Below the pieces are notes generated by a model. The model did not search any database. It was not told the DNA's origin and saw only the letters and a program-made list of their open reading frames with translations. Below, piece after piece: positions 3,792 to 63,744 of a stretch of 64,000 nt of DNA. The position numbers and the translations under genes were made by a program. Position 1 is the stretch's first letter. Every line of letters starts with the position of its first letter. The stretch is from a virus (taxonomy: Duplodnaviria > Caudoviricetes), in the IMG/VR virus record IMGVR_UViG_3300027845_000349, positions 1 through 64,000 of that record. One strand, written 5' to 3'.

Positions 3792-4209
3792 TAAAGTAGA
3801 AGGCTGTAAGTGCAAAGAAGTAAATCTTGATAATATAGATTCTATTCTTGAAATAGCCTTAGAAATGGCTGAGATTATGATAACAAAAAGAGGTATTGGG
3901 CTTGCAGCTCCTCAAGTTGGGATCTATAAAAGATTTTTTGTTATGAAAAATTTCAGGGGAAACGGATATGTAACAATAATAAATCCTGAGATTATAAAAG
4001 TTTCAGATAAAATAGGTACTTTTAATGAGGGATGTTTAACTTATCCCTGGAATTATAGGGTTAATGTAAAACGACCTAAACAGATAAAAGCTTCATGGAT
4101 ATCTGATAACGGGGATTGGATATCAATGAAATTAACCGGTAGAGAATCACAATGTTTTCTTCATGAATTTGACCATCTGGATGGAATCTGTATTAGAAAT
4201 AAGGATTAG
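3772..4209 (+). CDS. def: Peptide deformylase
   Basis: All three PDF motifs are present: GIGLAAPQVG, EGCLT, HEFDHLDG. Confidence 0.95.
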   Translation: MNLVSPDKVEGCKCKEVNLDNIDSILEIALEMAEIMITKRGIGLAAPQVGIYKRFFVMKNFRGNGYVTIINPEIIKVSDKIGTFNEGCLTYPWNYRVNVKRPKQIKASWISDNGDWISMKLTGRESQCFLHEFDHLDGICIRNKD

Positions 4210-9829: not shown

Positions 9830-10906
9830 ATGCCTGGATTAGGAGAAATAACACCTGTAAAGCTTCAACTATCACGGGAAAATTTTAATGCTCTCATAGG
9901 AAGGCATTCTCAGCCTGTAAGATGGCTTGTAGCTGAAAACTGTCCCTGTATAGGATCAAATTTAAAAGTTGATGAAAACTGTTCATTATGTGGTGGTAAA
10001 TCGGTTACTTACTCAAATCCAACACAATCTTTCAGAATTGAAACATTTACAGCTCCCATTGATGGAGTTATTGATCAAGTAAATATAGTATGGGTTAGAG
10101 ATTTTAAAGGAAATGTATATACTGTAACATCTCAAGATTGTGTTTCTTTTGTAACTGGAGTTATAAAAGGGTATCAGTACCAGGTTAAATATATAGAAGA
10201 TTTAACAGAATCAGGATCCGGTACTGCGGAATATGTTGCAGATAAATTTTATAGAATAGATATTCCTACTACAATAGATTTTGGAGAAGTACAGGGGAAT
10301 TTGATCTCTGTTACTGCTTCAACTTCAACAACAGAGTTGATAGTTACAGAAATATTTAGAAATTGTTTTTATATATCAGATACTATTTCTTCTTCAGATA
10401 CTGTAAATGTTGAATATACTTATACAAATCCTTTTGAATTTGCTCTTATACACAATAATTTTTCTAAAGATGATCAGAAATTCTTAACTGATGTAAGTGG
10501 TGATGGCCTAATGGTTTTCCCTCAAAGATGGGAAGTTTACACAGATGATGTGATAATAGCTTTAAATGAAACTCAAGTACAAAAGACAACTTATAGATCT
10601 ACAGGATCTATCGATACTTTACCATCATTTTATCTCAATGAACTTAAGAGTGCTTATTCAATAAGAGATAATGCTAAATATACTTTTACTCCAGAGACAG
10701 ATTTTGTGATATTAAAAGGAAATCAGATCCAATGGATAAATAATACTCCTGATGAGAAAGAACAAATTAGTATGACTTATTCATACAATGTAGCCTATAA
10801 GGTTTTGCAAGATGTTCCAGATCCCAGAACAAGTGAAAGCAATAGATTTCCTAGAAAAGTAGCAATAAAGAAAATTTCCGGATATAACAGCAGAGAGGGA
10901 TTTTAA
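9830..10906 (+). CDS. Neck / head-closure protein
   Basis: CPC...C..CGG motif at the N-terminus; neck position. Confidence 0.6.
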   Translation: MPGLGEITPVKLQLSRENFNALIGRHSQPVRWLVAENCPCIGSNLKVDENCSLCGGKSVTYSNPTQSFRIETFTAPIDGVIDQVNIVWVRDFKGNVYTVTSQDCVSFVTGVIKGYQYQVKYIEDLTESGSGTAEYVADKFYRIDIPTTIDFGEVQGNLISVTASTSTTELIVTEIFRNCFYISDTISSSDTVNVEYTYTNPFEFALIHNNFSKDDQKFLTDVSGDGLMVFPQRWEVYTDDVIIALNETQVQKTTYRSTGSIDTLPSFYLNELKSAYSIRDNAKYTFTPETDFVILKGNQIQWINNTPDEKEQISMTYSYNVAYKVLQDVPDPRTSESNRFPRKVAIKKISGYNSREGF

Positions 10907-60787: not shown

Positions 60788-61418
60788 ATGGAAGAGGATA
60801 AACTAATTTTTAATTGTCCTGAATGTGGGAAAGAATATTCTACAAGTATAGATTCAACCGGTGATATGTGGAGATGTATTTGTGGGCAAAGATTTTCATG
60901 GAGAAAATTCTCTATTCCAAAGGAATCTTATATTAGATTGACTTCTGAACAGATTGAAGAAATTCATTATAGATATCTTACTGATAAGAGTCTACAGATA
61001 TTTAATTCAAGAATTGTAATGATAATGTCAATGGCTATACCATCATATAGGAAAAATAAAACCGGTAATCTTGAAGTTATATATTCTACTGAAGATATGC
61101 GAGAAATTAAAGGAATAGAGAAATTAAGAGATGATTATATTAAAGATCATTATCCAGAATTAATATATATTGGAGAAATAGATGCCATTAACAAATGATA
61201 ATTCAAGGATACATTTCTGTAGATATTGTGGGAAAACTTTAGAAACAAAAAGAGTGGTAATTGGATTCTTTACAAAGACAGTTGAAAAAGCATGCAATTG
61301 CTCTGATTTTGTATTAAATATAGAGATAACAAAGAATATAGACTCCTTGGAAAAGTCAAGACCGAAAGATAAATTTGAAATACGAGAATCTTATTCAATA
61401 GAAGAGATAAAGAATTAA
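60788..61418 (+). other. Two small Cys-containing hypothetical CDSs (60788-61198, 61182-61418)
   Basis: ORF track. Confidence 0.55.
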
Positions 61419-61486
61419 TTTGACATATTAAAATAAATGAGATAATCTTTATTTTTTATATTCTATTTATTATTTACAATTTTCCT

Positions 61487-61516
61487 AAAAGCCCTGGTAT
61501 AAATCAGGGCTTTTTT
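61487..61516 (+). terminator. Intrinsic (possibly bidirectional) terminator isolating the tRNA operon
   Basis: AAAAGCCCTGGT-ATAA-ATCAGGGCTTTT followed by more Ts. Confidence 0.85.
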
Positions 61517-61517
61517 A

Positions 61518-61546
61518 TTGACATAATTATAATATTAAAATAAGGT
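61518..61546 (+). promoter_or_regulatory. Promoter for the leader-tRNA operon (TTGACA-N17-TAAGGT)
   Basis: Perfect -35 at 61518-61523. The -10 assignment is less certain, and TAAGGT could instead serve as the SD of the leader. Confidence 0.6.
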
Positions 61547-61553
61547 AATAAAT

Positions 61554-61607
61554 ATGAACAAGAAAAATCTATACAGTTTATATCTCTCGTTGGTAATGCC
61601 TGAGTGA
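61554..61607 (+). CDS. Attenuator leader peptide MNKKNLYSLYLSLVMPE
   Basis: Eight consecutive Leu/Tyr/Ser codons at 61569-61592; tandem stops TGA TAG; overlaps the antiterminator strand. Confidence 0.8.
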   Translation: MNKKNLYSLYLSLVMPE

Positions 61608-61658
61608 TAGAACTATTTTCTTTATTATTCAGGCCATCCATTGTGGGTGGTTTTTTTT
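61581..61658 (+). promoter_or_regulatory. Transcription attenuator (1:2, 2:3 antiterminator, 3:4 terminator)
   Basis: 61581-61588/61602-61609; 61598-61611/61621-61634 (14 bp); 61633-61640/61644-61651 followed by a T8 run. Confidence 0.8.
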
Positions 61659-61660
61659 AT

Positions 61661-61734
61661 GCTCCGGTAGCCCAACTGGTAGAGGCATGGGACTTAAAAT
61701 CCTTGTGTTGACAGTTCGACTCTGTCTCGGAGTA
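61661..61734 (+). tRNA. tRNA-Leu(TAA), short variable loop
   Basis: Cloverleaf; loop CT-TAA-AA; TTCGACT T-loop; A73; no encoded CCA. Confidence 0.88.
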
Positions 61735-61740
61735 ATTCAA

Positions 61741-61814
61741 GCCTTGGTGGCCTAATTGGTATAGGCGCTGGTCTTAGGAACCAGACTTTGAGAGTTCGAG
61801 TCTCTCCCGAGGTA
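61741..61814 (+). tRNA. tRNA-Leu(TAG), short variable loop
   Basis: CTGGT-CTTAGGA-ACCAG anticodon arm; TTCGAGT T-loop; A73. Confidence 0.9.
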
Positions 61815-61820
61815 ATACAT

Positions 61821-61905
61821 AGAAGAGTATGTTAGCGGCTATACACGCAGTCTTGAAAACTGTTTACACTTAACGGTGTCGTGGGTTCGAGTCCCACCTC
61901 TTCTG
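61821..61905 (+). tRNA. tRNA-Ser(TGA)
   Basis: AGAAGAG/CTCTTCT acceptor stem; loop CT-TGA-AA; long V-arm; G73. Confidence 0.92.
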
Positions 61906-61909
61906 TTAT

Positions 61910-61993
61910 GGACAAATGCGATAATCGGTATTCGGCTTGATTGCTAATCAAGTGATCTGAAAGGGTTTATAGGTTCGAGTCCTATTTTGTCCG
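61910..61993 (+). tRNA. tRNA-Ser(GCT)
   Basis: GGACAAA/TTTGTCC acceptor stem; CTTGA-TTGCTAA-TCAAG; long V-arm; G73. Confidence 0.92.
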
Positions 61994-61997
61994 ACAT

Positions 61998-62081
61998 GGG
62001 TAGGTATGCAAACTGGTGAAGCAAACGGTCTGTAAAACCGTGACGTAAGATACATTGTGAGTTCGAATCTCACCTTACCCA
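61998..62081 (+). tRNA. tRNA-Tyr(GTA)
   Basis: GGGTAGG/CTTACCC acceptor stem; ACGGT-CTGTAAA-ACCGT; long V-region; A73. Confidence 0.92.
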
Positions 62082-62142: not shown

Positions 62143-63744
62143 ATGTGGACAAATGAAGAAAAGAAAGTTATAGCTACAACTGCATTAACAAACATGAGGC
62201 CGGGAGCTCATTTAGATTTCTGGCAGGAATGGTATCTATGTCAGAATGTTCGTTTCGGTCATTTGTTGAAATCCAGAAGAATCGGATTCAGCTTTATAAA
62301 CTCAATTAAGATGGTATCGGAAGCTATTTATCCAGGAATAAATAGATACCAAAAAGTAGTACTCTCGTATTCTTTAAATGAGGCCATGGGCAAAATAAAA
62401 GACGCTAGAGAAGCACTTATGAATCTTCCAGAAGGATGGACAAAGGAATTAAAAACAGACTCAAAGACAGCTCTAGAATTTTGGGATGTTGGTAAAAAAA
62501 GCGTTTCGCAAATTATTTCGATACCTGCTAAGTCTGCAAGGGGATTTGGAACAGATAACGATTACGGAGGAGCTATTGCTGATGAAGCAGCCGAAATAAA
62601 AGAGTTTCGTCCCATATATACATCTATTCTTCCTACTCTATCACGAGGTGGTACATTCTGGATGGGTGGAACTCCTAAAGGGAAAGATGATTTATTTTAT
62701 GATGTTCACGCCAATAAGGAAAAATATAAATCGTATACAAGAATAGAAATACCGTGGTGGCAAAGTTCTGCGAATTGCACTGACATAAAATCAGCTATAA
62801 GATATGCAAAAGAAATGGCTACTCATGATAGAGTTGAAAAATATGGCAATGAGATATTACATGAAATATTCAATAATATGGGACTTAAGCAATTCCAGCA
62901 GGAGTACGAATTAACATTCCAGGATGAAAATGATTCGTTCATTACATTAGAAATGATTATGTCCTGTACCCCTCAAGAAGTAGAACAATACGAATATAAA
63001 AATATATCAGAAATTCTAAAGGGTGTCATTATCCCTGAAATATGCACAGGATTTGATAAAGACGGTCAACCAGTATTTGAATCGGTAACAGCTCCAGCTT
63101 ATGATCCGGAAATACATGGAGCTCTTTACGCCGGTTGGGATATGGGAAGAACAAAAGATGCTTCTATATTTACACTTATCGGAGTAAAAGACGGTAAAAA
63201 ACATGTGTGGATGTCATATGAATTAAAAAACACTCCATTTGATGAACAGAAAGCATTTGCTGAACTGGCTTTATCGGTTCTACCTATCCAGCAATTTTTA
63301 ATTGATAAAAACGGATTAGGTATGGATTTTGCGGAATGGGCAGAAAAGAAATTTCCTACAGTTGCCCATGGTGTACAGTTTTCCAATGAAACTAAAGAAA
63401 CTATGGCTAATAAAGTATACTTAGGATTTGAAAGATTTGAATATGTTCTCCCTATGAATAGAAAACTTCATGCAGACATTCATTGTATAAGAAAAACATT
63501 AACAGCAATGAAGTTTAATAAATATGATGGATCCACAAAAGATTCTCATGCTGACCGGTTCTGGAGTCTTGCCCTGGCCACAATAGCTATAACTGATGGA
63601 GATGCAAATGTTTCAAGATTTTATCAAGGGTACAGAAGAAATAAGGATATTCAGATATCTTCAACTAAGAAAATTAAAAGTTCAGGAAATGCAGATTTAG
63701 ACCGGATAAGAAGAATGGCTAGAAGGGGTAAAAGGCGTGGTTAA
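62143..63744 (+). CDS. terL: Terminase large subunit
   Basis: Walker A variant KSRRIGFS, Walker B AIADEAA, nuclease GWDMGRTKD, C-terminal HADRFWSLALA. Confidence 0.92.
   Translation: MWTNEEKKVIATTALTNMRPGAHLDFWQEWYLCQNVRFGHLLKSRRIGFSFINSIKMVSEAIYPGINRYQKVVLSYSLNEAMGKIKDAREALMNLPEGWTKELKTDSKTALEFWDVGKKSVSQIISIPAKSARGFGTDNDYGGAIADEAAEIKEFRPIYTSILPTLSRGGTFWMGGTPKGKDDLFYDVHANKEKYKSYTRIEIPWWQSSANCTDIKSAIRYAKEMATHDRVEKYGNEILHEIFNNMGLKQFQQEYELTFQDENDSFITLEMIMSCTPQEVEQYEYKNISEILKGVIIPEICTGFDKDGQPVFESVTAPAYDPEIHGALYAGWDMGRTKDASIFTLIGVKDGKKHVWMSYELKNTPFDEQKAFAELALSVLPIQQFLIDKNGLGMDFAEWAEKKFPTVAHGVQFSNETKETMANKVYLGFERFEYVLPMNRKLHADIHCIRKTLTAMKFNKYDGSTKDSHADRFWSLALATIAITDGDANVSRFYQGYRRNKDIQISSTKKIKSSGNADLDRIRRMARRGKRRG

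Follow-up and report, generated by a model that had tools for sequence, protein, structure and literature searches.

The phage record IMGVR_UViG_3300027845_000349 (Caudoviricetes), whose first 64,000 nucleotides are the window analysed here, carries five tRNA genes for leucine, serine and tyrosine at positions 61661–62081. Together with a candidate promoter, a leader open reading frame (ORF) and an attenuator upstream of them, these genes probably form a cassette that acts as a demand-gated supply block for Leu, Ser and Tyr tRNAs. The gene set, the tRNA structures, the leader, the terminator and the recurrence of the arrangement in other viral contigs are established. The whole looks like leader-peptide attenuation applied to tRNA genes, of which we found no description in the literature, and the two leucine tRNAs, which have a short variable arm, look like a known but under-appreciated kind.

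The virus record is a single sequence of 87,804 bp with direct terminal repeats and is rated 100% complete. Exactly five tRNA genes are found, in a tight array on the plus strand; ARAGORN and the Rfam family RF00005 agree on them, with RF00005 scores of 49–60 bits compared with a gathering score of 29; the two Leu genes score 49 and 60 bits.

61661–61734, plus strand: tRNA-Leu(UAA), type I, variable loop GTGTT, G1·U72, A73 (ARAGORN, Rfam).
61741–61814, plus strand: tRNA-Leu(UAG), type I, variable loop ACTTT, A73 (ARAGORN, Rfam).
61821–61905, plus strand: tRNA-Ser(UGA), long variable arm, G73 (ARAGORN, Rfam).
61910–61993, plus strand: tRNA-Ser(GCU), long variable arm, G73 (ARAGORN, Rfam).
61998–62081, plus strand: tRNA-Tyr(GUA), long variable arm, A73 (ARAGORN, Rfam).

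A preliminary description of these positions had stated that only two Leu, two Ser and one Tyr tRNA are encoded, and this holds for the full genome, in which ARAGORN calls no further tRNA gene. The ARAGORN structures also confirm its account of the variable region: both Leu genes are 74 nt long with variable loops of 5 nt, while Ser and Tyr retain their long arms. It was likewise correct that CCA is encoded by none of the five genes, the bases after the discriminators being ATT, ATA, TTA, ACA and CTT, respectively. The anticodon loops are canonical. In the sampled phage arrays Tyr genes span 81–93 nt (with one call of 72 nt) and Ser genes 82–95 nt (with one call of 73 nt). The tRNA-Tyr gene is 88–91% identical to tRNA-Tyr genes of Bacillus and Enterococcus phages in a BLAST search.

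No anticodon of the five is redundant, and between them they serve every one of the five codon boxes of Leu, Ser and Tyr, such that all 14 codons for these amino acids can be decoded by the set (UAA, UAG and UGA with U34; GCU and GUA with G34). Of the 2,290 phage tRNA genes in the sample, 17% are for Leu, Ser or Tyr, which gives a probability of about 1.4e-4 for five out of five. This value is suggestive: it is low for one phage but can be reached by chance across many windows, the look-elsewhere effect. As such it suits a simpler explanation, which we nevertheless consider unlikely, in which the array is a constitutive tRNA supplement, its composition is an accident of a captured array fragment, the ORF upstream is a chance frame and the hairpins are a leaky terminator or a processing site. 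The set is treated here as one functional unit because a leader peptide matches it.

The leader and the elements around it are arranged as follows.

61518–61546, plus strand: candidate promoter TTGACA-N17-TAAGGT, read from the sequence.
61554–61607, plus strand: leader ORF of 17 codons, MNKKNLYSLYLSLVMPE, followed by a stop codon; its translation divides into MNKKN-LYSLYLSL-VMPE.
61569–61592, plus strand: regulatory codon run CTA TAC AGT TTA TAT CTC TCG TTG, encoding LYSLYLSL.
61598–61635, plus strand: candidate antiterminator hairpin with a 14-bp stem (-16.8 kcal/mol) that spans the stop codon of the leader and takes in the start of the 5′ arm of the terminator.
61631–61659, plus strand: intrinsic terminator from the terminator scan, with a 10-bp stem, a 3-nt loop and U8; a single base separates it from tRNA-Leu.

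LYSLYLSL is the longest run of Leu, Ser and Tyr in any plus-strand frame of the 87.8 kb genome (the expectation is 8e-4 per 150 nt), and it is found within 70 nt of the tRNA array. Among 550 small ATG-initiated ORFs on the plus strand the leader ranks first for the length of such a run. All eight codons of the run are different, for which a hand calculation under the codon usage of the phage gives a probability of about 0.02. Among them are the Leu and Ser codons that the phage uses least, and each of the five tRNAs is probed, CTC requiring four-way reading by U34. A perfect TATAAT is present at 61528–61533 inside the promoter-like region, the second hexamer of which (61541–61546) doubles as a Shine–Dalgarno-like AAGG about 7–12 nt before the leader ATG. 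A chance frame, as the constitutive supplement would have it, is hard to reconcile with the longest run of the strand lying this close to the array in an ORF that has a start codon, a Shine–Dalgarno-like site and eight distinct codons. When both strands are considered, the longest Leu/Ser/Tyr run of any frame is SLYSLLSLYL at 61315–61344 on the minus strand, about 210 nt upstream of the cassette. It is antisense to an ORF at 61182–61418 and is probably the mirror of a coding stretch rich in Lys, Glu and Arg.

The effect of a translating ribosome was modelled by folding the RNA with ribosome-sized masks. Without a ribosome the hairpin extends to 61584–61647 and both arms of the terminator are sequestered. 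The full terminator forms only with 61598–61611 masked, as by a ribosome at the stop codon, and a mask placed on the stop codon or on the last codons frees it. With the mask on the early Leu, Tyr and Ser codons the competing hairpin stays and only a 6-bp remnant of the terminator is possible. In the mechanism that we favour, a ribosome that passes quickly through LYSLYLSL would reach the stop codon and mask 61598–61611, the 10-bp terminator would form and transcription would end one base before tRNA-Leu. If the ribosome instead stalls at the early Leu, Tyr or Ser codons, 61598–61611 would be left free to pair with 61621–61635; this pairing would strip the 5′ arm from the terminator, and RNA polymerase would read into the tRNA genes. 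The switching step itself is one that we infer, because the antiterminator and the terminator overlap only in part.

This layout resembles that of the attenuators of amino-acid operons (thrL, the ilvGMEDA leader, hisL and trpL), where a short ORF with a regulatory codon run is likewise followed by an intrinsic terminator and the stop codon likewise lies inside the segment that would otherwise form the antiterminator, here a candidate one. The differences lie in what is regulated and in the make-up of the run. Amino-acid operon attenuators regulate biosynthetic enzymes, whereas here the regulated products are the tRNAs that read the test codons, so that decoding capacity would be sensed directly. 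In addition, the run of this phage has a different codon at each position, unlike the leaders of amino-acid operons. If the proposed mechanism is true, the cassette is a feedback loop that gauges decoding capacity itself. This complete phage, with its five tRNAs behind a single candidate promoter, 17-codon leader and terminator, would be a minimal natural test bed for the attenuation of tRNA operons.

The same design is found in other viral contigs. The upstream regions of all fetched arrays were screened for small ORFs with residues matching the downstream tRNAs, and the scores were compared with 200 permutations of the isotype sets. Five upstream regions score at least 5, while the permutations average 0.51 such regions and never exceed 3. 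In contig L287 the leader MKT-LFSSYLLSLSLLS-QGT precedes three Ser, four Leu, two Phe and one Tyr tRNA genes, and 13 codons probe all ten of these tRNAs. Its RNA adopts a textbook 1:2, 2:3, 3:4 fold with a z-score of -9.6 and an antiterminator of -24 kcal/mol. Contig L088 contains two leaders, each with a terminator and each matched to its own block. Behind the first, CYLQSLSLLPSPLDC, come Pro, Leu-UAA, Leu-UAG, Ser-UGA, Ser-GCU and Cys, with the same internal order as in this phage, and behind the second, IFIQWQNFTNTFEM, come Glu, Thr, Asn, Trp, Phe, Met/Ile and Gln.

Contigs L471 and L472 were found in a search with the D-arm and variable loop of the tRNA-Leu(UAA) of this phage and contain a multi-block array. 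Its last block, Leu-UAG, Leu-UAA and Ser-UGA, stands behind a leader MNN-SYLYLSSLLSL-... and a terminator; beyond the block lie sequences resembling Ser-GCU and Tyr-GUA, for which the programs make no tRNA call. The 3′ arm of this terminator is copied inside the leader. On the minus strand of L471, at about 10567–10870, another leader, MKTFS-QNHQWDNCEQNH-FSG, is placed before Trp, Cys, Glu, Gln, His, Asn and Asp, and its 12-residue run is made of exactly those seven amino acids, all seven being present. Folding gives a clear-cut antiterminator/terminator switch in both L287 and L471. The codon-matched leader arrangement is also present in L295 and L061. The L287, L088 and L471/L472 loci range from 38% to 54% in GC content, and the protein homology of this phage to them does not go beyond one weak match of 42 amino acids. 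The recurrence in L287, L088, L471, L295 and L061, with the composition matched block by block and above the permutation controls, weighs against a constitutive supplement. The cassette appears to be the Leu/Ser/Tyr block of a modular architecture of phage tRNA arrays, with a separate codon-matched leader for every block; this phage carries that block alone.

Several further features of these arrays were recorded. At 1806–1880 L287 encodes a tRNA-Phe with the anticodon AAA, an unusual A34 tRNA, beside a normal Phe(GAA). The gap between tRNA-Cys and tRNA-Glu on the reverse strand of L088 contains a Tyr(GUA)-like gene whose long arm is odd, and at 10745–10826 in L077 there is a Ser(UGA)-like gene in which the T stem and the acceptor stem are damaged; both were missed by ARAGORN. 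With such missed genes counted, L088 and L077 both become Leu/Ser/Tyr sets. Six related contigs (L376, L390, L415, L427, L436 and L368) share a conserved small ORF, MMFMVVHVLFSKQLVISKVHVT and its variants, before a His-Val-Phe(-Leu-Thr) block. It lies 93 nt upstream of the block (82 nt in L368) and is a candidate codon-matched leader.

A number of observations weigh against demand-gated control. The overlap between antiterminator and terminator is about 5 nt and a 6-bp hairpin with the U-run remains, which makes the switch less clean than in L287 and L471, and a stall at the final two codons of the run would place the ribosome itself over the antiterminator. The consensus promoter scan did not list TTGACA-N17-TAAGGT, and the transcription start is a prediction from the sequence. 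Under a stricter definition of blocks the enrichment in the screen is modest, with two regions scoring at least 5 compared with a permutation mean of 0.31. A search for leaders found none upstream of the L077 and L080 sets, which consist of Leu, Ser and Tyr only, and none in the tRNA region of phage T5. No close relative of the cassette was found in two metagenome scans (one with the Tyr arms and one with the Leu D-arm and variable loop). The partial overlap, L077 and L080, and T5 would also be expected of a constitutive supplement, as would a composition that a scan of very many windows can turn up.

Both short-arm leucine tRNA genes have the leucine core, namely a 3-bp D stem, an 11-nt D loop, U8–A14, A15:U48, G18G19 and A73. 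We aligned 152 short-arm Leu(UAA) genes, all of them distinct: 77 are viral, 74 are bacterial and one is the copy of this phage. All 20 stem pairs are paired in 92–100% of the family, 19 of them in at least 97%, and the 17 stem pairs that are free of constraint from the search pattern show three to six pair types, a covariation that holds for the family and not for a single copy. The variable loop is 5 nt throughout and U8 is invariant; A14 is found in 152 of the 152 genes, G18G19 in 151, A73 in 151 and A15:U48 in 137. This alignment marks the short-arm Leu(UAA) genes as a family that is functional and under selection. At the first acceptor pair, 48 of the 77 viral copies have G·U, as in this phage, and 57 of the 74 bacterial copies have G–C.

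Given this intact core, the two tRNAs most likely accept leucine. The leucyl-tRNA synthetase (LeuRS) of Streptomyces coelicolor charges its own type I tRNA-Leu(CAA), whereas Escherichia coli LeuRS failed on the same tRNA (PMC6614811), and this one uncharged type I tRNA-Leu is another point that weighs against a supply of leucine tRNAs. The preliminary description had held that bacterial LeuRS relies largely on A73 and the D/T architecture. The part concerning A73 and the leucine core agrees with what is retained in both genes; independence from the arm is not general, as the failure of the E. coli enzyme illustrates. That failure, and the fact that leucine identity is assigned by the anticodon alone, would fit short-arm tRNAs that are charged by another synthetase, in which case UUR and CUN codons would be recoded or the tRNAs would have a non-translational role. 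We consider this very improbable in view of the leucine core, of the charging by S. coelicolor LeuRS and of the large terminase subunit TerL, whose TTA and CTN codons are matched by Leu at 26 of 34 positions in a relative lacking tRNA genes (66% overall identity). Leucine codons therefore appear to keep their leucine meaning in this phage. Recoding of these codons was considered and is rejected on the TerL alignment.

The preliminary description proposed that the Leu tRNAs had dropped the arm as an escape from a host enzyme. The distribution of such genes does not bear this out. The short-arm Leu(UAA) pattern occurs in at least 120 viral contigs, in arrays of every composition. In 80 loci from these contigs, 102 of 105 Leu genes with any anticodon are at most 80 nt long (101 of 73–80 nt and one 50-nt fragment), and the Ser genes are long, as are all Tyr calls but one. 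An independent sample of 70 loci anchored on Tyr, on which the following share rests, has 18 short genes among 53 Leu genes, about one third. The T-arm variant of the Leu(UAG) of this phage is present in 104 viral contigs, and in the sample anchored on it short and long Leu genes stand together in 36 of 80 arrays. An exact 26-mer of the Leu(UAA) has no match in viral contigs, and a BLAST search of both Leu genes against E. coli genomes gave no match.

In bacterial genomes the same pattern is found as a solitary chromosomal Leu(UAA) gene of 73–78 nt (most of 74–77 nt) in many Actinomycetota and some Planctomycetota, and the Leu(UAA) of this phage shares 80–84% identity with chromosomal Leu(UAA) genes of Actinobacteria and with the copies in other phages. 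Bacterial carriers with a 5-nt variable loop (contigs L131–L210) include Nocardia, Mycobacterium, Arthrobacter, Rothia and Corynebacterium. Because short-arm Leu genes are generic in phage arrays and native in Actinomycetota, the arm was, as far as such comparisons tell, not dropped in this phage; its two genes are inherited members of an old and widespread family of type I tRNA-Leu.

Precedents for type I tRNA-Leu are the S. coelicolor tRNA-Leu(CAA) (PMC6614811) and a tRNA-Leu(TAG) with a short variable loop that has already been noted in mycobacterial tRNA gene clusters (PMC6582537). Both resemble the present genes in the Leu anticodon, the 5-nt variable loop, U8–A14, the D/T elbow and the coexistence with type II Ser and Tyr tRNAs, and the mycobacterial gene also sits in a mobile tRNA cluster. 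They are found in cellular Actinobacteria, whereas here a low-GC phage has type I tRNAs as readers of both UUR and CUN and as its sole Leu tRNAs. Among isolated phages, BLAST finds homologous short-arm Leu(UAA) or Leu(UAG) genes in the T5-like Serratia phage Slocum and Vibrio phage vB_ValS_X1 and in the Streptomyces phages Elmer, Wofford and StarPlatinum. Slocum has the anticodon arm and the GTGTT loop in common with the Leu of this phage. All five differ from it in having large mixed arrays in which CCA is mostly encoded, and T5, unlike this phage, has a long-arm Leu(UAG). Type I tRNA-Leu has been deemed rare in bacteria (PMC6614811), yet it is common in phage arrays, including those of Vibrio and Serratia phages, and on Actinomycetota chromosomes. 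Since E. coli LeuRS is reported to charge type II tRNA-Leu only, charging in hosts of the Vibrio and Serratia type is a direct question of LeuRS recognition.

What creates the demand for these tRNAs may be a general shortfall of host tRNA during infection, which is the cause that we favour. The preliminary description had named gaps in codon usage as a possible full explanation of the set. Plain gap filling fits poorly, because over the whole genome 52% of the Ile codons are ATA, which makes up 4.4% of all codons, and 69% of the Arg codons are AGA, yet no Ile or Arg tRNA is carried.

The shortage could also be inflicted by the host. In that case an immunity enzyme would read the type II shape, the cassette would replace the lost Leu, Ser and Tyr tRNAs, the armless Leu tRNAs would be immune and the leader would sense the attack. 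The restriction of the set to Leu, Ser and Tyr, its completeness and a leader that senses exactly the codons of these amino acids are all in line with such a role, and Leu/Ser/Tyr blocks recur in phages over the above range of GC content, for which codon bias alone does not account. We nonetheless think this improbable. The short-arm Leu tRNAs are generic in arrays of all compositions, are mixed with long-arm Leu and are native in Actinomycetota, and the Ser and Tyr tRNAs, which keep their arms, would stay vulnerable to an enzyme that reads shape. No phage-specific change is seen at a site read by such an enzyme, the anticodon loops being canonical. Type II tRNAs show no general clustering in phage arrays, with 56 adjacent pairs compared with 48 expected, and pairs of different isotypes are fewer than expected. 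Families for tRNA repair (CCA-adding enzyme, RNA ligase and AAA_33 kinase) have no member in the phage genome, and the same leader logic also governs blocks of type I tRNAs. What is borne out of the suggestion in the preliminary description is a non-random set, the five codon boxes, the LYSLYLSL leader and the terminator making one unit tied to the decoding of Leu, Ser and Tyr; escape through loss of the arm is not.

Phage tRNAs of T5 and of mycobacteriophages reportedly replace host tRNAs lost to anticodon nucleases and resist them through changes in the anticodon loop. The present cassette would be similar in substituting for depleted host species and differs in its canonical loops. To our knowledge, recognition of the type II tRNA shape has not been described for any bacterial nuclease. 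The nearest precedents for an enzyme of this kind, by analogy, are nucleotidyltransferase toxins. MenT3 needs the long loop of tRNA-Ser and prefers Ser over Leu (PMC11541572), and the abortive-infection toxin AbiEii (DUF1814) of Streptococcus agalactiae likely prefers class II tRNAs (bioRxiv 10.64898/2026.01.19.700257). In both, as in human SLFN11, the choice of substrate depends on the class II long arm, and they are thus a conceivable cause of a Leu/Ser/Tyr shortage; all three are proteins that act on tRNA and lie outside this locus, and SLFN11 is eukaryotic. Strong use of Shine–Dalgarno sequences (other genes of the phage use AAGGAG or AAGGTGG sites), a low GC content and the similarity of the tRNA-Tyr to those of Firmicutes phages are only hints of a Firmicutes-like host, of which the first two would fit hosts in which AbiE occurs. 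A more specific version, in which the block is a sensor-coupled countermeasure to an abortive-infection enzyme of the AbiEii or MenT type that picks class II tRNAs, with a stall at Leu, Ser or Tyr codons switching on the replacements and the spread of armless Leu reflecting long-term selection for escape where aminoacylation allows it, is distinctly unlikely. The recurrence of Leu/Ser/Tyr blocks in unrelated phages makes a shared vulnerability of class II tRNAs, for instance to toxins of the AbiEii or MenT type, or a shared supply problem during infection testable.

The position of the cassette in the genome is defined by its two neighbours.

61491–61516, plus strand: intrinsic terminator of the upstream unit, the left boundary of the cassette, with a GC hairpin GCCCTG...CAGGGC and a T-run.
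62143–63744, plus strand: large terminase subunit gene (terL), the right neighbour, identified by PHROG terminase matches.

Six TerL relatives with 57–66% identity lack tRNA genes, one of them being an 81-kb genome that is 92% complete. In L005, a relative without tRNA genes, terL is immediately preceded by a matching 'ataaatcagggcttttttt'. In the closest relative the common upstream terminator abuts the terminase promoter region, which places the insertion point right after that terminator. From this comparison, the five-gene array is an accessory cassette that is absent from the closest relatives. Upstream of the cassette, at 61421–61516, a strong terminator lies about 40 nt beyond a promoter-like TTGACA-N17-TAATCT; the two would constitute a tiny transcription unit. 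A similar promoter, a short spacer and a terminator precede terL at 3815–3905 in L005.

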